From NCBI GenBank assembly GCA_048939465.1, contig JBHLPL010000004.1, positions 750 through 32,749 on the forward strand: a stretch of 32,000 nucleotides of DNA. Reading direction: 5' to 3'. Positions within the stretch are counted from its first letter, which is position 1. Every line of letters starts with the position of its first letter. This document shows positions 7,711-20,063 of this stretch, piece by piece. The notes beneath the pieces were generated by a model that saw only the letters and a list, made by a program, of their open reading frames with translations, made no database searches and was not told the DNA's origin. Made by a program: the position numbers and the translations under genes. The stretch is from Promethearchaeota archaeon. GTDB lineage: Archaea; Asgardarchaeota; Odinarchaeia; Odinarchaeales; JBHLKK01.

Positions 7711-7811
7711 AGCCGAGGAGGGGAGTTGAACCCCTTTAAACCGGTATCAGCACATCACCAATCAGCATACCAGTTTTGCAGCCGGACGCATGGCCGTTCT
7801 GCCACCTCGGC
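7711..7811 (-). tRNA. tRNA-Cys(GCA) with a 30-nt intron at position 37/38; CCA not encoded
   Basis: Minus strand: acceptor stem GCCGAGG/CCTCGGC, U73 discriminator, anticodon arm TCCGG-CTGCAA^A-CCGGT, T arm AGGGG-TTCAACT-CCCCT. Confidence 0.95.
7746..7775 (-). ncRNA. tRNA-Cys intron with box D'/C' K-loop and a second CTGA; candidate guide RNA
   Basis: AACTGGTATG-CTGA-TTG-GTGATGT-G-CTGA-T. Relaxed bulge-helix-bulge: C32-U33-G34-C35 pairs with intron GCUG with one U.U mismatch. Confidence 0.6.
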
Positions 7812-7869
7812 ATCTTTTATAGATTCGTATCCCCACTTACTAATTAAATTGATCCATATTCCGATATCA

Positions 7870-7883
7870 TATAACATTGTTAT
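7870..7883. promoter_or_regulatory. Candidate operator, site 3 (TATAACATTGTTAT), upstream of tRNA-Cys/cysS
   Basis: ATAACA-T-TGTTAT palindrome with the same consensus as the two cysE sites. It overlaps a second palindrome, TTATGAG-GT-CTCATAA (7880-7895). Confidence 0.6.
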
Positions 7884-7897
7884 GAGGTCTCATAAAA

Positions 7898-8098
7898 AGT
7901 CTACGGTTAACCCAATCGTAGACTACTCCTCCCTCGCAGAAGGAGCTGATGACTATGCTTGACCGCAGTTCCCTTCCTCTCCGCCCTTCAGGACGGAGTC
8001 TCCTTGACTTGGTTCGGATGAATAAGCTCCAAATCACTGAGAAGATCGATAGTCGCGAATAGATGTAAGTTCTCCTAGGTCCGTTTTCATCTATTCGC
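7898..8098 (-). ncRNA. Structured intergenic element A (ncRNA or non-autonomous mobile element; identity unknown)
   Basis: Four hairpins, two of which are complete only on the minus strand through G.U pairs. Shares a 28/32-nt motif with element B. Confidence 0.45.
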
Positions 8099-8216
8099 TG
8101 CCTTCTGTACATTCACATGTTTGACAATTGGAGGTGGTGGGGAGTTGATTAATACTTAAGCTAAAGAGATAAATCCGATTAGAATTCCTATTCATTCATA
8201 TTATGAGGTTACCACC

Positions 8217-9407
8217 ATGACGATGGGAGCTTTATCTGGAATAAGAGTTTTGGATCTATCTCGGGTCTTGGCAGGACCATTTTGTACCATGATACTGACT
8301 GACATGGGTGCGGAAGTCATAAAAGTAGAGGGAAAGACTGGTGACGATTCTAGATCTTTTCCTCCTTTCATCAAAGGTCAAAGTGCTTATTTCATCAACA
8401 TAAACAGAGGGAAGAAAAGCATAACACTCGATCTGAGACATAGAGAAGGAAGGAGGATATTCTTAGAACTGGTCAAATTATCCGATGTCGTTGTAGAAAA
8501 CTTCAGACCCGGGGTTATGGAGAGATTGGAATTAGGCTACGATAATTTGCAGCAGATCAATCCCCGAATCATTTATGCAGCCATTTCCGGATTTGGAGCG
8601 TACGGTCCGTATAAGGATAGGCCAGGTTATGATCTGATCGGACAAGCAATGGGAGGAATAATGAGCATTACAGGATGGCCAGACTCTCCCCCCACAAGAA
8701 CTGGAACCGCAATTGCAGATATTCTGGCGGGATTATTTTGCTGTACAGGTATTTTATCGGCACTCAATTCGAGAACGGCTACTGGAGTTGGCCAAAAAAT
8801 AGACGTGGCATTAGTCGATTCGGTCATGTCAGCTCTGGAAGCATATAACGAAATGTATCTCGTTGAGGGCCGGGTTCCCAAGAGACAAGGCAACAGATAT
8901 GAGTTTATCTATCCCTACGATACCTTCGAGGCAGAAGATGGTTGGGTTGTTGTAGGAATAGGTAATGACGATATGTGGAAGACCTTCTGTTCAATAATTA
9001 ACAGAGAAGAGCTTGCCACAGATCCAAGATTCATCACAAACGCGATGAGGATTGAGAACCATGTTGAGGCAAAAGCAGTAACAGAAGAATGGACATCAGA
9101 GAGGCCTGTACGCGACATCATGTCAACACTTGTAGAAAGAGGAATCCCATGTGCTCCTATCTATTCTGTCGAGGATACGTGCAATGATCCTCACATTGCT
9201 GACGCAAGAGAGATGATAGTGGAGATAGACCAACCTGGATTGGGGGCAATTAAGGTTGCAGGATGCCCAATAAAGATGTCCGGTACTAAGGCCATGGTGA
9301 GAGGATCTTCGCCCACTCTTGGTCAAGATACAATCAAGATTTTGGGAACGTTACTCGGATTATCAAAAACCCAGCTCAGGAAACTAAAGGACGGAAACGT
9401 AATTTGA
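8217..9407 (+). CDS. CoA-transferase family III (CaiB/BaiF)
   Basis: LSGIRVLDLSRVLAGPFCTMILTDMGAEVIKVE, NRGKKSITLDL, DVVVENFRPG and GYDLIGQAMGG (catalytic Asp) motifs. Confidence 0.95.
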   Translation: MTMGALSGIRVLDLSRVLAGPFCTMILTDMGAEVIKVEGKTGDDSRSFPPFIKGQSAYFININRGKKSITLDLRHREGRRIFLELVKLSDVVVENFRPGVMERLELGYDNLQQINPRIIYAAISGFGAYGPYKDRPGYDLIGQAMGGIMSITGWPDSPPTRTGTAIADILAGLFCCTGILSALNSRTATGVGQKIDVALVDSVMSALEAYNEMYLVEGRVPKRQGNRYEFIYPYDTFEAEDGWVVVGIGNDDMWKTFCSIINREELATDPRFITNAMRIENHVEAKAVTEEWTSERPVRDIMSTLVERGIPCAPIYSVEDTCNDPHIADAREMIVEIDQPGLGAIKVAGCPIKMSGTKAMVRGSSPTLGQDTIKILGTLLGLSKTQLRKLKDGNVI

Positions 9408-9592
9408 TGATTAGCAATACAATTATTGTCAAAACCAAATTGACTAATTGGCTCGGGACAATCATTTTAATTTATATTCTTTGAACCCGCCCGATCAGGT
9501 ATTGATTCTGGTGCCCTAAGTGTGCTAATCGGACCAAGAGTAATTTAATCCTTATCAATATCCAACCATCAAAACGCCACGAAAACTGATTG

Positions 9593-9820
9593 CTAGACAA
9601 GCGAACTCTTATAATACAGATAGACGAGCAAGATCGAAATCATAACCACAAAAGTGGTAACAGGTATGTAAATCTCGTAGAAAAAGACGGTCTGAGCAAA
9701 GCCAGTATGATACGAGCAGACTATAGAGATTATGTAGAACAATACTAAGGCTAATACCGCTGTTGATCCCATAAAGACCTTAAAACGCCTTTTTGGATCG
9801 ACCGTTATGACCCCCCCCAA
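9593..9820 (-). CDS. Small hypothetical membrane protein (2 TM)
   Basis: 75-aa ORF with two clear hydrophobic helices flanked by basic residues. Confidence 0.55.
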   Translation of the reverse strand: MGGVITVDPKRRFKVFMGSTAVLALVLFYIISIVCSYHTGFAQTVFFYEIYIPVTTFVVMISILLVYLYYKSSLV

Positions 9821-9955
9821 AAGAACTCTTGGAATTCGGACCTTAAAAAGTTGTCGAGCTAATTGGTTTTGCCCTTCGTGGCAATTATTACATTGATTCT
9901 TTTGATACCAACCATTTTCATGTCGATTTGACTCTTTCGTTTACTATTTGAGGAC

Positions 9956-10642
9956 TCAGAAGAGAGTTTTCGGCTTGAAATCAAATCGCCGCATAATATT
10001 TCTAATGGTCTTCCAGCTCTTTCTTACTTCCTCAGGAAAGCTCCTGTGTTTTTCATACCACTGGTTAAGAAACTTCTTAGTCCTTTCATCAGCGGGATAT
10101 CCAGAGCCAAAATCACCATACTTATCTTGCAGGTTTTTGACTATTTGATCTCTTCGAACCTTCGCCAGGATTGAGGCAGCCGCCACGATCGGGTACTTGG
10201 TCTCAGCATAATTCTCAGCCACGATTTGAGGTCTGAAGCTTAATCCTTCCCTGATTCTTCTTGTGTACTTGTCTGTGCTTACTTGTGGAGAATCGACGTA
10301 GACAATATCTGATCTTAGCTTTTCAATCAGCTCTGCCATTTTTCGGGCCTCAAGAAGATTCAACTCATTTTTCTCAACAGATTTGTCAATTTCTCTTGGA
10401 GAGATCTCCAGCAAGATGTAGCTGTCCAGTGTTTCAGCGATTTGGCTGGAAAGCGCAACTCTCCTCTTTGGAGTCAGCGATTTTGAATCCTTCACTCCTA
10501 TGTCGAGCAGTTGCCCAGTTTTCCTCTCCTGTATTAGGGCCCCGCACATTATCATTGGTCCGATTACAGGACCTCTTCCAGCTTCATCTATCCCGAGAAC
10601 CTTTCTTTTCTTGCCGTAATCCTTTGAATGCGATTTACTCAT
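9956..10642 (-). CDS. rnhB: Ribonuclease HII
   Basis: LGIDEAGRGPVIGPM, GVKDSKSL, VYVDS, VAAASILAKVRRD and DFGSGYP motifs. Confidence 0.97.
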   Translation of the reverse strand: MSKSHSKDYGKKRKVLGIDEAGRGPVIGPMIMCGALIQERKTGQLLDIGVKDSKSLTPKRRVALSSQIAETLDSYILLEISPREIDKSVEKNELNLLEARKMAELIEKLRSDIVYVDSPQVSTDKYTRRIREGLSFRPQIVAENYAETKYPIVAAASILAKVRRDQIVKNLQDKYGDFGSGYPADERTKKFLNQWYEKHRSFPEEVRKSWKTIRNIMRRFDFKPKTLF

Positions 10643-10747
10643 AATGAACCAACCACTCCACGAGTATTTGGGTCACCAGAGACTAAAATAAGTTTTGAAA
10701 ATCAGGGTAGAGTTTAGCGAAAAATAGAGAATATTGGATACAGAAAC

Positions 10748-11902
10748 TCAGATATGGCTTTTAGGTATGAGTTCATTGTCTGTGTCTGCAAAACGGTTCT
10801 TGGCGATTTCTCTTTTCTTCGTAGCTTGTTTGATGAGGTTTTCCAGTCCTTCAGCTGCTTCCGCCTGTGACTTGAGTTCGATGTATCCTTTCTTTACAGC
10901 TTCGTCAAACAATTGTTTGCCAAAAGGCGTTCTTGAAATTACAAAACACCAGCCGTCTGGAGCGCCTTGAGAACCCACGTTTATATCTGCCAGTTCGCCT
11001 GTAAGATCGGTGCATTCTTTGCATGCCTCCAGAGAATGTTCCTTGACCTCCTTGAGTTTCGCTGCTATGACCTCTTTGCTGCCCTGATAGGCATAGAAGA
11101 CTCCTTTCTTAATGTCGAATTTTGTAATGCTCTTCATGTCAAACCCTTTTGATTCTACGAAGAGCTTTATTCCATCGTAATGGAAATTATCCCAGCAGAA
11201 AACGCTAATGAAGAACTTGACAATCTCCGTGATCTTCAGGGTTCCGTGCTCGGAATACTGCATCTTTCTTAGTGATTCTGCTTGACAGGGAGTTCCCACA
11301 ATAGCAAGACTTCGCAAGTGAGAGGGGCCCGGAATATACTCATCGTATTCTTGGTATGCATATCCTAGCAGGGAATTATTGGGGGAAACCGTATATTTTG
11401 AGCCTGCTGCATTTAAGATAGCATCTTGAGATTGGGCCAGCATGGGGACGGGTTTCCAGGGAGTCTCAGGATCGGTGCCGGTCACAATTGCGGCCTTGAT
11501 GTATTTCTTGTCCATGGCGTACGTAAGGAGAGCCGTAACTACACCTCCATCCTGACAGCCCCTTCTAATTGGCCTGGCTTTTGCTCTCGCTATGGCGTAG
11601 GACTGGTATATTCCAATTGGTTCGTCTTCATTTCTTGTACGGCCGAAAAGGTCCGTTTCTGCAAGTTTGAAATCTAGGCCGAATCTGGGACAATGGGTAA
11701 CACACATACCACATTGCTCACACCTTGAAACCGGGACTGGCTTTTCATCTCTATAACCTATGGCAGCTATCGGACACGAGGAGATACAGCCGCCACAAAA
11801 CATACATCGGTCTTTCTTAATTATGTTTACCAGAAGGTCTCCAAACTTGTATTTGAAGGAATCTTTCCTTGCCATTCTTACTTCCGGAGCTGCTTCAGTC
11901 AT
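10748..11902 (-). CDS. Coenzyme F420 hydrogenase/dehydrogenase beta-subunit (FrhB/FdhB) family protein with N-terminal 2x[4Fe-4S] ferredoxin domain
   Basis: CMFCGGCISSCP, CEQCGMCVTHCP, QDGGVVTALL, AAGSKY, IVGTPCQ and CKECTDLTGELADINVGS motifs. Confidence 0.92.
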   Translation of the reverse strand: MTEAAPEVRMARKDSFKYKFGDLLVNIIKKDRCMFCGGCISSCPIAAIGYRDEKPVPVSRCEQCGMCVTHCPRFGLDFKLAETDLFGRTRNEDEPIGIYQSYAIARAKARPIRRGCQDGGVVTALLTYAMDKKYIKAAIVTGTDPETPWKPVPMLAQSQDAILNAAGSKYTVSPNNSLLGYAYQEYDEYIPGPSHLRSLAIVGTPCQAESLRKMQYSEHGTLKITEIVKFFISVFCWDNFHYDGIKLFVESKGFDMKSITKFDIKKGVFYAYQGSKEVIAAKLKEVKEHSLEACKECTDLTGELADINVGSQGAPDGWCFVISRTPFGKQLFDEAVKKGYIELKSQAEAAEGLENLIKQATKKREIAKNRFADTDNELIPKSHI

Positions 11903-12026
11903 TTTTCACACCAGAGCTAATTGATAGTTTTTCAAATTTAAAGCTTTGGCGAATACCTGCTGTCAACTCTTGCGCGGTATTCAGAAGAAGTATGCTTTAA
12001 ATCTTGCTATTTAAATCTTTACGAAA

Positions 12027-12215
12027 TCAGGCATTCAATAAAAGGAGGGGAGAAGACTCGCTCTTCTGAGTGAGTCTTGAAACGTGCTTGACAATTACCG
12101 GGGAGGGGGCACACTCTTTTCTAAGCGCACATGCCACACAAACGTCGCATAAACCCTCTAGGCAGAAATCTATAGGTACTCTATCGCATGGATATAGGTT
12201 TATATCGGTGACCAT
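12027..12215 (-). CDS. Putative small Cys-rich protein (62 aa, 6 Cys)
   Basis: GGTGA SD 6 nt before ATG; C-x4-C-x2-C-x2-C-x5-C cluster. The C-terminal half overlaps a hairpin, so coding status is uncertain. Confidence 0.45.
   Translation of the reverse strand: MVTDINLYPCDRVPIDFCLEGLCDVCVACALRKECAPSPVIVKHVSRLTQKSESSPLLLLNA
12053..12078. other. Hairpin AAGACTCGCTC-TTCT-GAGTGAGTCTT
   Basis: 11-bp stem with one G.T pair on the plus strand. On the minus strand it is followed by a pyrimidine/T tract. Confidence 0.5.
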
Positions 12216-12358
12216 ATTTTTTCACCATAAAATAATATGCAAAAACGAATTAATAAACGTTATCCGAGAATACATACTATGAAAAGTGGTAAACTCTATC
12301 TCGCAGAGAAGAATCTTTTAGAGGCAAGAAACGGATCGAAGTCACTCGCCTCAATCCT

Positions 12359-12390
12359 AAAAAAAAGAACTCGCAGAAGAAAAAGGGGGG
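12359..12390 (-). terminator. Probable T-rich terminator of gar1-tfb
   Basis: T5 and T8 runs on the minus strand immediately after the tfb stop codon. Confidence 0.45.
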
Positions 12391-12392
12391 AA

Positions 12393-13325
12393 CTAAAGCG
12401 GAACATCTAGGTTCAGTTTTTCTACTAGTTCTTTATAGCGGTTTCTCACAGTCACTTCAGTCACTTTGGTCACCTCGGCAACATCACGTTGTGTCCTTCT
12501 TTCATTCGAGATGACACTGGCGATATATAATGCCGCTGCAGCAACGCCTGTTGGACCACGTCCAGAAGTTAATCCATTCTCACTGGCAAGTTTCAGAATT
12601 TCAATTGCTTTTGACTGGACTTCTCCTGTAAGGTTCAGCTCACTCGCAAAACGCGGAATATAATAGGTTGGATTGGTGGGTGGAACAGCAATCCTCAGTT
12701 CCCGTGCTATGAAGCGGTATCCACGACCAACATCTTTCTTGCTAACATGTGATACCTCTGCTATTTCATCCAGAGTCCGAGGGACTTTGCATTGTCTGCA
12801 TGCAGCGTAAAGAGCTGCAGCAGTAACTCCCTCTATCGACCTTCCTCGAATAAGTTTCTGTTCGACCGCTTGCCTGTAGAGCATGGCAGCAGCTTCTCTT
12901 ACATTTCTGGAAAGTCCCAAGTGAGATGCCATCCGATCGAGCTCTGAAAGCGCGAAAGCGAGATTCCTCTCCGTAGCGTCAGATATACGTATACGACGCT
13001 GCCACTTCCTCAGTCGGTATATTTGCGCTCTCTTTTTGGGGCTTATATCCTTGCCGTAACTATCCCGATTCCGCCAGTCAATCATCGTACTCAGTCCCTT
13101 GTCATGGATAGTATACGTCATTGGAGCCCCAACTCTCGCTCTCTTTTCCTTTTGCTCGCTGTCGAAAGCTCTCCATTCAGGGCCATTATCAATGATTCTG
13201 GAACGTATAACAACGCCGCAATTGATACAAATTATCTCCGCACGTGCATAGTCCCTAACAAGTTTTGTATTTCCGCATTCAGGACAGGTGGTAATCACGT
13301 GTCCCTCACAATCCGGTTCTGTCAA
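12393..13325 (-). CDS. tfb: Transcription initiation factor IIB
   Basis: Zinc ribbon CPECG...CINCG, B-reader GPEWRAF, and two cyclin repeats ([46 protein letters not shown]). Confidence 0.98.
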
Positions 13326-13597
13326 AACTTCTTCCTCCTCCGGGGTCTTCTCCTATTGTTTTTTTCCTTATTCTTAAGATACAATACCGCCCCAACTAGA
13401 TTCTTAGCGTCTTCTGCTGGGATAGAGGGGGTAATTGAGATATAGGGCTTCTTAACAGGGCCAAAAACATCAGAAATCGTACCAGCCTTTCGTTCATTTT
13501 CTGTTAGAACCAAGGCATTAAGCGGGGGCGTAAAATCAGATTGTATTATAAGCTTTCCCATCGAAGAAACATGTGTCACCAACCCCAGCCATTTCAA
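13322..13597 (-). CDS. gar1: H/ACA RNP protein Gar1/Naf1
   Basis: [11 protein letters not shown]...[17 protein letters not shown] pattern and the conserved gar1-tfb linkage (4-nt overlap). TTG-13597 follows a GGAGGGGAG SD; the ORF extends to GTG-13624. Confidence 0.88.
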
Positions 13598-13647
13598 GCG
13601 CTCCCCTCCGGACGGTCGGGCCACTTTCTAAAGCTCTCCAAGGATGC

Positions 13648-13661
13648 CTTATAAATTTTTT
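13648..13661 (-). promoter_or_regulatory. BRE/TATA of gar1-tfb
   Basis: Minus strand reads AAAAAA-TTTATAAG upstream of gar1. Confidence 0.55.
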
Positions 13662-13743
13662 GGTTTTAGGCTGATTTAATTTATAGTATAATTCTTAGAT
13701 TGATATTAGAACTCGATATTTAATAAAACCACCTTGAAGATGT

Positions 13744-14040
13744 TTATTTTGTTCTCAATTTCCTGAGACTAGTGGAAAATTGTTTCAACAAACTTTTCTT
13801 TTCTGTTGAACCCTTTATGATAATTCTTCCCTCTTTTCTCCACCAGAATCTAGGATAGGCAGCTTCAGGTTCTGTTTCGTATTCAACCTTCAGAGCCTCT
13901 GCCGCTTTAATCAACTCTTCCAGTTTCGGAGCTTCTATAGCTTCTTTTAGAGGCGCCCGGCGTCCGCTCCTTCTTGAAAACCTTGAATCAAAATACACAG
14001 GCCACAGGATTGAAACGCCTCTTTTTTTCAAGCTTGACAC
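13744..14040 (-). CDS. srp19: Signal recognition particle 19-kDa protein
   Basis: ILWPVYFDSRFSRRSGRR, PKLEELIKAAEAL and AAYPRFWW...GRIII motifs; AGGAGG SD before GTG. Confidence 0.93.
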   Translation of the reverse strand: MSSLKKRGVSILWPVYFDSRFSRRSGRRAPLKEAIEAPKLEELIKAAEALKVEYETEPEAAYPRFWWRKEGRIIIKGSTEKKSLLKQFSTSLRKLRTK

Positions 14041-14150
14041 GCCCTCCTGATCCTAGACAAGAAATCTGTAAATACAAGTATTTGTATCGGGTTTGACATA
14101 AAACGGCCAGTGATGGTTGTTGCGAAAGGCTCTCTGGGCGACGCTTGGGC

Positions 14151-14534
14151 CTATTCCGTAATTAAGACGGCGTTGATTATTCCATGCTGTCCAGGGCGAC
14201 TTGTGACCTTTGCCTTCCCGATATCAGTGTTTATGGTTGCACCTTTTGTTATTACACCTCGTCTCTGATAGTCAACTGTCGCAGGATTAGAAATTACGTT
14301 GATTATTCTCACCTTCTGGGTTTTTCCGTCCTCAGGATCTGTTATGTTTGCGTACTGGCCTCGGAGAAGCTTCATTTTTATGTTTCCACCCCTTGAACGA
14401 ACCTTCTTCCTTTTACTCTCCCCAGGTAGCGTTTCGGCAGATTCTCTGCCTAATTCAAACAGTCTTTTCTTACGATGCGGCCGCAGTCTGGCCCCAGACG
14501 CCTTACGTGTTGAACGGCCTTGCCACCTTCCCAT
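14151..14534 (-). CDS. rps8e: 30S ribosomal protein S8e
   Basis: [13 protein letters not shown]...[28 protein letters not shown] and [15 protein letters not shown] motifs. Confidence 0.97.
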
Positions 14535-14722
14535 AGGTTTTCACTTCAACACTCAATTTACGCTAAGACTATTCAAATGCAGTTAAAAACCTTTTTGTAT
14601 CATTTCTATCGAACTTTCTTTTTGTACTAATTATCCAGATTTTCACCACCCCAGATGGCTGGCCATAGATAGGAATAATGATCATAGAGTCGAATGCTGT
14701 AATATGTTCTGAAGAGGTGATC

Positions 14723-15166
14723 ATGCTGCCAGGAGTAAAACTTAAATATCGCAAAAAATTAAGTTTTATAATAGATAAGCTCAATCGAGGTCAAGGAACT
14801 TCAGAGTTGACAGTTATGAGGCTGGGAAAGTGGGAAAGAGCGATAATGCAAAAAATCTTTGATCATGAACTGGAATCGTATTACAGAAATCAGTATAACG
14901 AAATCCTTCACTTGTTTCCAAAAACAATTAAAAACAGAAGGATCATTTGCAGTCAAGCGATAAATCGCCTTATTGAAAAGAAAATGGTGGAAAAGACGTG
15001 GACAATCGAAAATGTCTACAAAACGTATCGTTACGGCTTGACTACCCTTATAGTCAGCAATGGCAGAAAACCAGATCTATTTCTCAGTTTCAAGCTTACA
15101 GATAAGGGACGGGAAATCACCAAGCATTTTGCAGCTGGAAGTCAAGAGTACGCCTTTCAGGACTGA
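14723..15166 (+). CDS. Hypothetical winged-helix protein
   Basis: GAGGTGA SD before ATG-14723. SQAINRLIEKKMV helix followed by a long wing ending FKLTDKGREI, a typical wHTH terminal motif. Confidence 0.7.
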   Translation: MLPGVKLKYRKKLSFIIDKLNRGQGTSELTVMRLGKWERAIMQKIFDHELESYYRNQYNEILHLFPKTIKNRRIICSQAINRLIEKKMVEKTWTIENVYKTYRYGLTTLIVSNGRKPDLFLSFKLTDKGREITKHFAAGSQEYAFQD

Positions 15167-15507
15167 TTGCATACCATAGAATATATCTCCCTCAACAAGA
15201 CATCGACCTCAATCCAAATTCTTTGAGTTGCTTGAGATCAAATCACCCAAACAACGTTTGAGGGGTATTAATTTCCAAACCAATCTTCTCAATCGACTTT
15301 CATGGTTAGAACCCTTCAAATAAGAAACCTTTTATGTTTGTGTTTTTTAGCTTCGTAATGGAATAGTCAATCGAGAGATTCCTCTACCTCAGTATCTTAT
15401 TGAGGGAATATCTAAGTAAGATATCATTTAATAGGTACGTCAACAAAAAGTTTAATCAGCAGAGTCTAACCAAGGAATCGTACTATGAATGCGGGAGTGA
15501 AGCCCTC

Positions 15508-18500
15508 TTGGTCTTCATCAAGAAAATTGAAATGAAGGGGTTTAAGTCCTTTGGGAATCAAAAACTGATATCGCATTTTCCTAGGGGATTCACCGCCGTA
15601 GTCGGTCCAAACGGGAGTGGAAAGAGCAACATTTTGGATGCCTTTTGCTTTGTCTTAGGACACTTGAGCGCCAAAACAATGAGAGCCGGATCCTTCTCAG
15701 ATTTGATATACTCGGGCGGGGATTCATCGCCTTCTGCCAAATATGCCCGTGTAACGCTCTACCTCGATAATTCAGATGGGGGGATCCCTATCGATTCATC
15801 TTCAGTTGTGGTTGCCAGGGTAATAGATCAGGAGGGTCGGGGCGCTTACTGGCTAAATGGTAAGCGAGTGACAAGAAATCAAATCATCGATCTACTTGGG
15901 ATGGCAGGCATTTCTCCCAACGGTTATAATATTGTTCTTCAGGGGCAACTGGCCCAGTTCATCCAAATGAGTCCAGTAGATCGAAGAATATTAATTGAAC
16001 AAGTTGCAGGTATTGCAACATATGATGAAAAGAAGGAGAAAGCATTAGGCCAGCTAAAGCTAGCAGAGCAGAACCTTTCTAAAATCGAACTTCTGATCAG
16101 AGAAGTTATGAGCGAACTGGAAAGGCTGGAAAAAGAGAAGAATGATGCAGTAAGGTGGCAAGAGCTTTCAAAAGAGATCAAGAAGTCTGAAGCCTTAGTT
16201 GTGTTTAACGAACTGCAAAATACAGAACAAGAGCTATCCGGAAATCAAATACTGATCGACGAGAAGAAGAAAAGACTTGATAGACTGGAGAAGGATGGTA
16301 CTCAGCTCAGCCTAGAAGTGAGTAAGAAAAGAGAAAGATTAGAGGAAATCGATGCGGAAATTAGAACAAAACAAGAGGATGAGCTTGAGAAAGTGCGAGC
16401 TGAGATAAACGAGCTAAATCGCTTGGTATCTCAGATGGAAGCCGACTTCAGATACTTGAACAACCGATATGAAGAGGGTAAAGAAAACCTACAGAAACTC
16501 GATCATGAGAGTAAAGAGATTGAGGATCTGATTCAAAGACTGCATAATGAGATTCAGAAATTAAAGGAGCAAAAGACCGCGATTCAGTCCAAGATTGCAC
16601 AAAAGGATGAACTTACTTCCGAAATAACCCAGCACATATCCCAGAGAGATACAACATACAGCGCGAGCATAGTCAAACTCAGGAACATCCGAAAGCAATT
16701 GGACTTGAAGAGAGGCGAGCTTGCAGATATCTCGACCCAAAAGAGCGTCATCGAAAAAGAGTTGTCCTACCTTTATGAAGATCGAAAAAGTCTAGAATCG
16801 ATACACTCAGAGAGAAGCAAGAGAGTGGAAGAAACCATAAAAAGAAAAGAAACTCTTGAGGCTGAACTTAATCAAGTCAGATCTGAGATAGAATCCCTCG
16901 AAAAGCAGAAGCGGGAGGCAGATGAAGAGACACGATTAACGGTAAAACAGCTTAGGACGACTGAGGAATTGGTAAGGAACGCGAGAGAAGAAATCATAAA
17001 ACTAAAGGTACGCATAAACTCAATCAGAGAGGCGCGAGCACGCTTTCTCAGAAGCAGACCGGCTGTGCATGAAGTGCTTGAACTACGCGATAACAACGTT
17101 GTTGAAGGGATATTTGGAACTATAGCCGAGCTAGGCGTTGTTAGTTCTGAGTACGCAACCGCTTTGGAGGTCGCAGCTGGAGCTAGACTAAGCTATGTAG
17201 TTGTCAGGGACGACGATGTCGCTGCAAAATGCATAAACTATCTCAAACAGAAAAAGCTAGGCCAGGCTTCTTTCTTGCCTTTGAATAGATTAATTCTGCA
17301 GACACCCAAAGAACAGATCAGGGGTAAGGGTGTAGTAGCCCCTGCAATAGAGCTAATACGGTTTGAGGGGCAGTATAAGCCAGCTTTTGATTATGTTTTT
17401 GGGAGAACACTAATAGTAGACGATCTGAATACAGCCCGTTTCTTGAAAGCCGGCTCCAATCTTAGAAAAGTCACAGTCGATGGGGACGTCGTCGAGCCTA
17501 GTGGGCTAATGACGGGTGGCCATTACATCAAACCAGTCAAAATTACGCAGGAAGACGAAGAGACTCTGCCTAAGGTAGAGGAACAACTAAATGGCCTAAT
17601 AAAGACCCAACTGGATCTTAGAGACAAACGAGATGGCTTAATCGCCAGCATTGACAAAGTGCAAAATGAATTACTTCAAAAGAGAGAGAAGCAGAGCGAG
17701 ATTACCGCAAAATTGGAGAGCATAAACCTTCAAGTTCTGGAAGAAGAAAAGTCTCTTAACGAAATTCTTCCAAAGATGAGCGAAACTCAGGATATAGTGG
17801 ACGAGAAGAAAACGAGTCTTCAGACTTTGGAAAATCAAAGTGCCAAGGTTGAAAAAGAAACACAAGAGTTATCAAGACTAAGCGAAGAGCTAAGCGAAAT
17901 CGTTGAACGTTCTACTGTCGCTGAACTCAATGAGAAGATCAAAGCCCTTGAGAAGGAGCGTGAACAACTTAAGGATTCTGCCGCGAATATTGATGTCGAT
18001 TTGACTCAGAATCAAACTAGGTTAAACTATCATCTTCTTCCTCGAAAAGATGAGATTCTCTCAGTCATCTCTAAACTGGAAGAAATGCTTCCCGAGCTTG
18101 AGAAAGAGCTTCTAGCCAAAGAGACTGAATTAGATGAGCAGAGAGAGATATTTGGCAAATTTCACGAAGAAAAGGGAAGAATAGAGGGCTTAATAGGAAA
18201 GCTTCAAAAAGAAAAGCAAGAAATCTATCTCGGAATCCATGAGAAGACAAACAAACTCTCCGGCATGGAAAAGGAACTCATGGATCTGCGACTTGAAATC
18301 AATAGTCTTGAAGTCAAGGGAGATAACTATCAAAACAGGCTAGTCGATCTTAAGTCAAAAGCGCAGGAATACATTTTGTTTAAACCTCCCGAGATCGTTG
18401 AGATAGACGTTCGGAAACTAGGGGAAAGAGTTAGGGAACTTCAGGAGGAGAAGATGGCGCTTGAACCAATCAATCAGAAAGCGATACTCAGATACCCAAC

Positions 18501-19071
18501 AGTCAAAGAGCGTTATGATGAGCTCTCGGAAAAACAGAATAGACTTCTGATAGAAAAAAATTCAATAGTTGAGTTTATGGATGAAATCGAGAGGGAAAAG
18601 ACGAAAGTCTTCATGTCAACCTTTAACGAGATCAATCGTAATTTCAATAGAATATTCGGTCAGCTTTCTCCCGGTGGAGAGTCACGTCTGGTTTTGGAGA
18701 ACGAGATGCATCCTTTCATGGGAGGCATTCGGATAAAAGCAAATCCCGGAGGAAAGAAAGTACTCTATCTTGAGGCCATGTCTGGGGGGGAGAAGGCACT
18801 CACTTCTCTTGCGTTAATCTTTGCCATACAAAGGTGTCAACCAGCACCTTTCTATATATTTGACGAGGTTGATGCTTCTCTGGACTTGGCAAACGTCAAA
18901 CGGGTTGCTGAATTGATAAAGGAGTTCTCCAAAGACTCACAGTTTATAGTAATATCGCTGCAAGACGTAATGATGGCTAGGGCAGATTCTCTATTAGGAC
19001 TCGTTAGAAAGAGAGATCATTCAACCATCGTTTCGGCAAAACTGGAGCAGGGCGCAAGATACATTGAGTGA
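15508..19071 (+). CDS. smc: Chromosome segregation protein SMC
   Basis: FIKKIEMKGFKSF, Walker A GPNGSGKS, long coiled coils, hinge GDVVEPSGLMTGG, signature MSGGE, Walker B YIFDEVD. True start is TTG-15508 after GGGAGTGA. Confidence 0.98.
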   Translation: MVFIKKIEMKGFKSFGNQKLISHFPRGFTAVVGPNGSGKSNILDAFCFVLGHLSAKTMRAGSFSDLIYSGGDSSPSAKYARVTLYLDNSDGGIPIDSSSVVVARVIDQEGRGAYWLNGKRVTRNQIIDLLGMAGISPNGYNIVLQGQLAQFIQMSPVDRRILIEQVAGIATYDEKKEKALGQLKLAEQNLSKIELLIREVMSELERLEKEKNDAVRWQELSKEIKKSEALVVFNELQNTEQELSGNQILIDEKKKRLDRLEKDGTQLSLEVSKKRERLEEIDAEIRTKQEDELEKVRAEINELNRLVSQMEADFRYLNNRYEEGKENLQKLDHESKEIEDLIQRLHNEIQKLKEQKTAIQSKIAQKDELTSEITQHISQRDTTYSASIVKLRNIRKQLDLKRGELADISTQKSVIEKELSYLYEDRKSLESIHSERSKRVEETIKRKETLEAELNQVRSEIESLEKQKREADEETRLTVKQLRTTEELVRNAREEIIKLKVRINSIREARARFLRSRPAVHEVLELRDNNVVEGIFGTIAELGVVSSEYATALEVAAGARLSYVVVRDDDVAAKCINYLKQKKLGQASFLPLNRLILQTPKEQIRGKGVVAPAIELIRFEGQYKPAFDYVFGRTLIVDDLNTARFLKAGSNLRKVTVDGDVVEPSGLMTGGHYIKPVKITQEDEETLPKVEEQLNGLIKTQLDLRDKRDGLIASIDKVQNELLQKREKQSEITAKLESINLQVLEEEKSLNEILPKMSETQDIVDEKKTSLQTLENQSAKVEKETQELSRLSEELSEIVERSTVAELNEKIKALEKEREQLKDSAANIDVDLTQNQTRLNYHLLPRKDEILSVISKLEEMLPELEKELLAKETELDEQREIFGKFHEEKGRIEGLIGKLQKEKQEIYLGIHEKTNKLSGMEKELMDLRLEINSLEVKGDNYQNRLVDLKSKAQEYILFKPPEIVEIDVRKLGERVRELQEEKMALEPINQKAILRYPTVKERYDELSEKQNRLLIEKNSIVEFMDEIEREKTKVFMSTFNEINRNFNRIFGQLSPGGESRLVLENEMHPFMGGIRIKANPGGKKVLYLEAMSGGEKALTSLALIFAIQRCQPAPFYIFDEVDASLDLANVKRVAELIKEFSKDSQFIVISLQDVMMARADSLLGLVRKRDHSTIVSAKLEQGARYIE

Positions 19072-19346
19072 AATGCCCTGAGGAAAGGAGCTTATGACCA
19101 TGCTTGACCTCAATTCGTTCTCAGGCTTTAATTCAACCAAATGTCAAATAGGGGGAGGCATTTCAACGCCCCAGCCCTGTGATCCCCGTATTGTGTCTGC
19201 CTGCACAGTACATCTTACTCATCCCTCTCACAGGTCTTTGACTGCTTTCTCCCTTTCAGGGAATGCTTTCAGACCTATCGGCACGTATAGCACAAGCGTA
19301 TCTAGGGATCCCTTGATCCCTCCATCCGTTCGTATGAAATCTCTTT
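19069..19346 (-). ncRNA. Structured intergenic element B between smc and scpA (homologous motif to element A)
   Basis: TGAAATGCC/GGCATTTCA, GGGATC/GATCCC, AGGTCT/AGACCT and TCCC-TGAAA-GGGA stems; 28/32 and 10/11 matches to element A. Confidence 0.45.
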
Positions 19347-19349
19347 GAG

Positions 19350-20063
19350 GTGATTAGGATAGAGAATGAAGAGGAATCTGCAAAAGACGAAGAAGAGTTT
19401 TGGCTGCAACCGCCTTGGACATTGCTAACAGATGTAGTCAAGCTAAGCAAAGTAAGTCCTTGGAACATTGATCTTGACGAGTTAGTCCACGGCTTCCTCG
19501 AAAAAATGTTGACCTTGAGTCTAGTTAATTTTAGAGTCTCTGGCATTGCATTGCTCTCAGCATCAATTCTTTATCGTATGAAGACTGAGCTGGCGCTGAC
19601 TTTAGGCGAGGGGGAAGAGGAGAGCAATCTGTCTGAGGAGTTTAAACTCCTTCCTCCTATCAGACCTCCATTTCGCCTGGTTAGTCGGAAAGTCACCATA
19701 GATGAGCTACTGATAGCGCTGGAAGACGCTCTCCGCCAAGAGGTTGAGAGTAAAAAGCGTAAGCCAGTAACGAAAACAATAGAATTAGAGACACCTGATG
19801 TTGTTTACGAAGTAGAGCCCGACAAAGCTGAAATAGAAAAGACGCTAGCACTGGTTTACGAAAGAATAAGGACGTTAAGCCACAACGGGGAACCAATAAG
19901 ATTCTCTCAGCTCATTTTAGAAAAAAGAAAAATCATTATGGTCAGAACGTTTGTCTGTATTCTGTTGCTCAGTTTCAGAGGCAAGATAGACATCTGGCAA
20001 GAGGAACCGTTTGGCGAGATTTTTGTAAAGCTATTGGAAGAGGGGGACACAGATGACGAATAA
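19350..20063 (+). CDS. scpA: Segregation and condensation protein A (kleisin)
   Basis: SPWNIDL, FRVSGIALLSASILYRMK, and C-terminal RTFVCILLL...IDIWQEEPFGEI; located between smc and scpB. Confidence 0.92.
   Translation: MIRIENEEESAKDEEEFWLQPPWTLLTDVVKLSKVSPWNIDLDELVHGFLEKMLTLSLVNFRVSGIALLSASILYRMKTELALTLGEGEEESNLSEEFKLLPPIRPPFRLVSRKVTIDELLIALEDALRQEVESKKRKPVTKTIELETPDVVYEVEPDKAEIEKTLALVYERIRTLSHNGEPIRFSQLILEKRKIIMVRTFVCILLLSFRGKIDIWQEEPFGEIFVKLLEEGDTDDE

Follow-up and report, generated by a model that had tools for sequence, protein, structure and literature searches.

Two motif-bearing intergenic loci of a Hodarchaeota contig are very likely copies of one gene-less IS200/IS605-derived repeat family

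The DNA analysed here (hereafter the window) is a stretch of 32,000 nt from contig JBHLPL010000004.1 of the Asgard archaeal assembly GCA_048939465.1 (positions 750 to 32,749, forward strand). On its plus strand, a 1223-aa open reading frame (ORF) at 15400-19071, smc, is followed by scpA at 19350-20063. Both gene names are those of a preliminary description of the window, which derived the name smc from ORF size and context; orthologues of scpA occur in 20 of 31 related genomes. The same description had drawn attention to a 32-nt motif present at 7940-7971 and again at 19085-19116, and the two stretches are indeed intergenic and identical at 28 of 32 positions. Both motifs were found to lie, on the minus strand, within copies of a longer repeat. 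The copy between smc and scpA (copy 2; 19068-19365, minus strand) is full-length, with 298 nt, and decayed, and was matched by the nhmmer profile of the repeat with an E value of 3.9e-66 (model 13-303). The other copy (copy 1; 7918-8017, minus strand) measures 100 nt and is internally deleted, model 1-59 matching at 7918-7976 and model 257-305 at 7974-8022. We consider it very likely that the two loci are copies of one protein-less family derived from IS200/IS605 insertion sequences (IS), of the palindrome-associated transposable element (PATE) type, in an Asgard (Hodarchaeota) genome.

The genome searched was the 1.96-Mb assembly G000, and the relatives used for comparison were G001 and G002 of the same genus and G024 and G026 of other families of the phylum. 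In the window, a 25-nt core pattern of the motif had only the two known matches, with 0 expected from 100 shuffles. In the whole genome it was found at 17 places with up to 3 mismatches, at which a reversed control pattern gave 0, and at 19 places with up to 5 mismatches. Alignment of the 19 loci gave an element of ~300 nt, of which the 32-nt motif is the best-conserved part. On the plus strand the aligned loci start with GTAAACTACTCCTCCCTTGCAG-AAGGAGCTTATGACTATGCTTGACC and end with ...CTCTCCGCCCTTTCGGACGGAGTCTCCTTGAGGTGGTTTAG, followed by ATGA. The nhmmer profile, built from 17 full copies, detected 18 full-length copies in the genome, together with several halves and two 100-nt forms; forms of ~50 nt, with a single hairpin between both tips, were also present. 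The two same-genus genomes contained 7 and 13 matches, and matches were also obtained in two other families of the phylum. For positional comparisons, 29 copies from three species of the one genus were aligned (alignment A2). About 35 further profile matches covered the last ~80 positions alone, that is, the left-end module. These loci represent at least two sister repeat families which have the same left-end hairpin and end in ...GCGGAGAAGAAGATAA (TTATC-type flank). Copies of the sister families with this ending do not adjoin ATG codons.

Read on the minus strand, the element begins 3' of a TCAT with a left end (LE) that consists of a 19-nt tip, the hairpin CTCCGTCC-GAAA-GGGCGGAG and the TATA-like box CTTAAATA. 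A scaffold region of ~220 nt follows, and the right end (RE) is formed by the hairpin CTCCTTCTGCAAGGGAGGAG and the terminal TAGTTTAC. The ~220-nt middle aligns colinearly with the final ~50 codons of tnpB and the stretch that follows them, which is the region encoding the scaffold of the TnpB guide RNA (omegaRNA). The 32-nt motif complements the 5' arm of the RE hairpin together with the segment immediately upstream of that hairpin, and its strand is opposite to that of tnpB, within the guide-RNA scaffold region. In copy 1 it comprises the RE-hairpin arm (AAGGAG) and the RE-proximal scaffold segment, corresponding to A2 columns ~268-299. The LE and RE hairpins are alike and lie on the same strand, and they are kept in most of the 29 copies, with some two-sided changes. 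Base pairing, counted per position, is present in 21-28 of the 29 copies for the LE hairpin (A2 columns 29-48) and in 24-28 for the RE hairpin (A2 columns 292-313). The LE cleavage site lies 19 nt before the hairpin, and the left-end cleavage site of IS608 has the same spacing.

With this anatomy, several features of the preliminary description could be re-read. Its second shared block, GTTCGGATGAA at 8012-8022 and GTTCGTATGAA at 19328-19338, is present with the reported spacers of 40 and 211 nt; the two occurrences are, however, not homologous. In copy 1 the block spans the element tip and the ATGA(A) next to it (model 295-305, A2 columns 5-15); in copy 2 it falls within the decayed LE hairpin, ~25 positions deeper in the element (model ~270-280, A2 columns 30-40). 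The proposed covariation with GACT/GACC partners pairs non-homologous positions, and the T/C of ATGAC(T/C)ATG belongs to no conserved helix among the 29 copies. What had been taken for a variable interior is the difference between a full-length copy (298 nt) and an internal deletion (100 nt) of one element. No evidence was found for the ribozyme that had been considered.

The relation of the repeat to tnpB elements is seen at several loci. The Pfam TnpB zinc-ribbon model matched six places in the genome and the Y1 transposase model one, and beside these tnpB genes lie pieces of the repeat, in the opposite strand orientation. Contigs C70 (1-1004) and C55 (5721-6043) overlap by 77 nt and give one complete tnpB-only IS when joined, the assembly having broken within the repeat. 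The joined element consists of TTCAT, the left end, a 385-aa TnpB (Pfam OrfB_IS605 and Cas12f1-like_TNB) and a right end finishing in ...GGGGTAGTTTAC; in reverse complement, its left end corresponds to model 228-304 and its right end to model 1-147. On C5 a broken tnpB is located inside a repeat copy, and in G026 the 3' end of a TnpB gene (384 aa) contains model 72-142. Aligned with three tnpB elements at their 3' ends, the RE halves of the repeat are colinear with them; the colinearity starts at about the stretch coding for RuvC-III (...NIAQRY...) and stops at a boundary that all share, ...GTAGTT(T/C)AC. In two TnpB genes it takes in the final ~50 codons, beginning at about ...NIA(Q/R)RY..., and reaches the same boundary, ...GTAGTTTAC. 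The one complete IS605 of the genome, on C105, encodes a Y1 TnpA of 135 aa (Y1_Tnp, E 4.9e-37) and a TnpB of 427 aa, and it shares with the repeat a right end of the hairpin-plus-tail type. Furthermore, the CTTAAATA box of the repeat is conserved where the autonomous element has a TATA-like box, ~27 nt before the tnpB ATG. The shared ends and the colinearity of the scaffold with tnpB elements indicate that the 300-nt repeat is a gene-less derivative of a tnpB element. This agrees with the earlier suggestion of a non-autonomous mini-mobile element with a guide-RNA flavour and partners acting in trans, as relatives bearing tnpB and tnpA are present elsewhere in the genome.

Two observations were made alongside. 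A single-hairpin mini-element of ~50 nt, belonging to a sister family of the ...GCGGAGAGGAA type, lies directly upstream of the left end of the C105 IS605 (C105:995-1045; L033:195-245). In G024, at least 8 copies match the central scaffold part alone (model 70-213; contigs C199, C76, C211, C47, C261 and others), and at the two of these loci that were checked the neighbours are ordinary genes (FtsX permease, carbamoyltransferase) and not tnpB.

Three pairs of filled and empty sites were obtained from the same-genus genomes (a slash marks the insertion point). The smc-scpA site is empty in G001 (...TATATTGA/ATGAGGAACC...) and filled in G000 and G002, so that the empty-site allele which the preliminary description had suggested looking for at this junction does exist in the genus. 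The C66 site is empty in G002 (...GAGTG/ATGAATAAG...) and filled in G000 and G001, and the C23 site is empty in both G001 and G002 (...GGTGTTTAAGA/ATGAAGG...). In all three pairs ATGA follows the element immediately, so that on the tnpB strand the element stands immediately 3' of TCAT, and there is no target duplication. Across A2, the flank next to the left end is TTCAT in most copies and T(T)TAT in a minority; TTCAT and TTTAT are published target-adjacent motifs (TAMs) of IS605-family elements (PMC10055086). Given this presence/absence polymorphism, the repeat family has been mobile within the genus, targeting TCAT.

Copy 2 is an old, decayed junction insertion at smc-scpA. Both of its TnpA-type hairpins and its TAGTTTAC tail are degraded, and it is therefore probably immobile. 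The ATGA that flanks it at 19366-19369 (plus strand), the complement of the TAM TCAT, marks the insertion point in the filled/empty comparison. At the other edge, the stop codon of smc (TGA, 19069-19071, plus strand) aligns with the TAA of the element's G/TAA/AC end, so the smc stop now comes from element DNA: the gene ends with ...ATT GAA TGA in the empty allele, with ...ATT GAG TAA in the filled allele of G002 and with ...ATT GAG TGA in that of G000. The start of scpA is affected as well. In the empty allele it is a TTG lying 8 nt inside smc, and the insertion severs that TTG. In both filled alleles the scpA frame is open across the last 16 nt of the element, where the outward-facing GAGGTG box, the family's replacement Shine-Dalgarno (SD) sequence, is found (19346-19352, plus strand, with GTG at 19350). 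The GTG of this box is the only canonical in-frame scpA start in both filled alleles, and 8 extra nt at the left-end tip, present in G000 and G002, place it in frame. scpA seems to have gained a new start codon, the element's GTG, from element DNA (window 19338-19430; L020:1495-1560; L021:1465-1600). In contigs of four public metagenome runs, the filled smc-scpA junction was bridged in three independent ones and no contig skipped the element; a ~90% strain in those contigs also has a diverged element at smc-scpA. The public runs in which these loci occur are all DNA contigs, from mangrove and sediment metagenomes, and no RNA run was listed among them.

Copy 1 runs from LE to RE on the minus strand with both end hairpins intact, and it lacks its promoter region and the greater part of the guide-RNA scaffold. 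The ATGA beside its LE tip (8018-8021, plus strand), again the complement of TCAT, opens a frame of 14 codons only. A second copy at C41:8644-8747 has the same deletion junction and shares derived bases with copy 1, which indicates that the 100-nt form has spread to at least two loci. Copy 1 is absent from the orthologous spacer of G001, and its flanks (7812-7917 and 8023-8216) occur once in the genome.

With TCAT complementary to ATGA, the element comes to lie right in front of start codons and at stop/start overlaps. The edge ATG, 6-7 nt past the element's GAGGTG, is the start of an ORF of 113-797 codons in 11 of the 18 full copies. A twelfth copy, C139b, also has an edge ATG; its ORF was scored from a TTG that lies 8 nt within the element. 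In 7 of the 18, the upstream ORF is terminated by the G/TAA of the element itself. By comparison, ~4% of the 21,418 ATGA sites of the genome are the first ATG of an ORF of at least 100 codons; the binomial P for at least 11 of 18 is 1e-11, and it is 0.001 at a generous expectation of 25%. Junction docking is the part of the work that is of interest to specialists. The insertion at C23 has left the native GGTG box stranded beyond the element. We propose that the G plus TAA of the element end would close the upstream gene and that GAGGTG, at its distance of 6-7 nt from the ATG, would re-start the downstream gene. With a stop and a ribosome-binding site supplied by the element in place of those that the insertion destroys, insertions at junctions would be tolerated. 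Selection against intragenic insertions surely contributes to the docking pattern. It is conceivable, though we hold it to be somewhat doubtful, that the family, perhaps TCAT-targeting IS605 elements generally, is adapted to operon junctions: a portable stop (G/TAA) and a portable SD (GAGGTG) would let polycistronic expression survive, and an antisense, self-promoted guide RNA would be planted against the 3' end of the upstream gene. If docking is an adaptation of this kind, it shows how a guide-RNA-bearing transposon can spread harmlessly inside essential operons. Searching the literature for IS605 elements that dock at start codons and bring a replacement SD returned nothing relevant, which is not proof that the phenomenon is unpublished.

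The same placement of copies, between co-directional genes, on the operon sense strand and at exact stop/start junctions, could be read as that of an intercistronic RNA element selected by the host, or of an RNA-level insert removed by the tRNA-splicing endonuclease at a bulge-helix-bulge (BHB) motif. We regard this as very unlikely. Presence and absence differ among species of one genus at three sites, as they would for mobile DNA, and the element itself restores stop, SD and start, so that removal from the RNA is not needed. The BHB intron was rejected, by inspection, on two grounds: the exon flanks are unrelated between copies, and exact removal needs the first bases of the insert to pair with the AUGA of the 3' exon, whereas GUAAACUAC has no UCAU and the 5' end is unable to form this pairing.

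The extreme ends of the element are partly complementary (TAAACTAC... and ...GTGGTTTA), over ~9 bp and imperfectly, as might be expected of a classical MITE, a miniature transposable element with terminal inverted repeats, derived from a DDE transposon and folding into a long hairpin. Such an origin is extremely improbable. It was rejected because the three filled/empty pairs are without target-site duplication and because the two hairpins repeat each other in direct rather than inverted orientation; moreover, the ends are common to tnpB elements and an IS605, and no DDE transposase gene with these ends was seen, no search aimed at DDE transposases having been made.

Hardly credible, finally, is the protein-coding case that the preliminary description had itself named as refuting, in which the motif opens, with SD plus MTMLD..., a family of small protein genes, of which both window loci are stubs: AAGGAG does lie 3 nt before an ATG, the frame, the only recurrent one of the element, runs for 84-92 codons in roughly every second copy and an ORF at 19094-19348 appears in the ORF list of the window, but the start codon has become ATT, ACT, ACG or AGG in 4 of the 29 copies and TTG in 2 more, in 15 of 29 the frame stops after 28-69 codons, most indels that distinguish the copies do not come in threes, variability is flat across codon positions (0.274, 0.241 and 0.242, with no excess at the third), and AAGGAG is explained as an arm of the RE hairpin in a region antisense to the tnpB 3' end, so that the case was rejected for its broken frames and lack of a coding signature.

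The reading of the repeat as a PATE-type derivative of IS200/IS605 elements has some points to its disadvantage. The filled and empty smc-scpA alleles are not a base-perfect pair, as the 8 extra tip nt and a 3-nt flank indel separate them. The exact empty site of copy 1 was not rebuilt, since the G001 spacer is too diverged to place the boundaries and the G002 assembly is without the orthologous flank. The C70/C55 tnpB element is a mere relative of the parent of the PATE, with 77% identity over part of the sequence, and the middle 80 nt of the PATE have no match in it. A search of the window and four copies against Rfam, at the gathering threshold and at E<=1, gave no family matching the element, a tRNA being the sole match. 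Lastly, the consensus fold calculated with RNAalifold was partial, with 26 pairs, of which 5 had two-sided changes, and a covariation term of about 0.

By the mechanism of IS200/IS605 elements, a Y1 TnpA acting in trans would move the PATE copies as single strands, in both excision and insertion, by way of the two hairpins. The candidate mobilising enzyme is the TnpA of the C105 IS605, which is the only Y1 TnpA of the genome and belongs to an element with a right end of the same type. As in published descriptions of PATEs (PMC10055086; PMC3119063), the retained promoter may drive an omegaRNA whose guide would be the flank beyond the right end, and which would be used by a TnpB encoded elsewhere. 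When RNAalifold was run on both strands of 17 copies and on 29 copies, the folds were partial, and the tnpB-sense strand gave -26.6 kcal/mol as against -11.5 kcal/mol, a weak difference.

Among known systems, repetitive extragenic palindromic (REP) sequences and bacterial interspersed mosaic elements (BIMEs) are short hairpin repeats, both intergenic and operon-internal, that are mobilised by Y1 HUH enzymes (REP-associated tyrosine transposases, RAYTs) related to the TnpA of IS200. Unlike the repeat described here, REPs measure 20-40 nt, are without a guide-RNA scaffold and have ends that are not common to tnpB elements.

PATE-type IS200/IS605 derivatives are already described as a kind, and the member found here differs in having an Asgard host; the idea of an unnamed new type of family, raised in the preliminary description, therefore gives way to this known type (PMC10055086; PMC3119063). 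PATEs of Haloquadratum walsbyi and other haloarchaea are gene-less IS200/IS605 derivatives (Dyall-Smith et al., 2011; PMC3119063). Like the repeat here, they keep both palindromic ends and occur in several size classes down to terminal-only forms. In contrast to the haloarchaeal elements, most copies here retain ~220 nt of the tnpB 3'/guide-RNA region. The pronounced start-codon docking with an outward SD, seen here, was not met with in the literature searches, which covered the paper of Dyall-Smith et al. in part.

The PATE-like and ISGst elements of Geobacillus stearothermophilus are gene-less minimal members of the IS605 family that "often encode omegaRNAs" and rely on trans-acting TnpA and TnpB (Meers et al., 2023 preprint, PMC10055086). 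Their TAMs, TTCAT and TTTAT, are the pentamers found beside the left end here; their host, however, is a bacterium, and TTCAT belongs to an IscB element (PMC10055086). That preprint makes no mention of start codons or ribosome binding for the Geobacillus elements. IS608 and ISDra2 resemble the repeat in their one-strand subterminal hairpins and in insertion 3' of a 4-5-nt motif without duplication (for ISDra2 TnpB, see Karvelis et al., 2021, PMC8612924). They carry a right-end guide RNA, and in the repeat the corresponding region is retained and a guide RNA is predicted. While IS608 and ISDra2 are autonomous, with tnpA and tnpB, the repeat is gene-less, with the right end TTAC and the target TCAT.

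A shared motif that seemed mysterious is in this way explained as ordinary mobile DNA. Exact boundaries, a target motif and filled/empty alleles are now given for an IS605-type mini-transposon family in Hodarchaeota, which are close archaeal relatives of eukaryotes and in which mobile elements are little described. The results also matter for annotation, as copies of the repeat create false small ORFs and mask true start codons.

Two further features lie near copy 1 and outside the element. To its right, a hairpin at 8054-8098 has a perfect 11-bp stem (GCGAATAGATG...CATCTATTCGC) and is unrepeated in the genome; the orthologous spacer of G001 lacks it along with ~130 nt of its surroundings. To the left, at a distance of 106 nt, ARAGORN, which reported no tRNA in the window, passed over a match to Rfam RF00005 (42 bits), an intron-containing tRNA gene of 101 nt at 7711-7811 on the minus strand.

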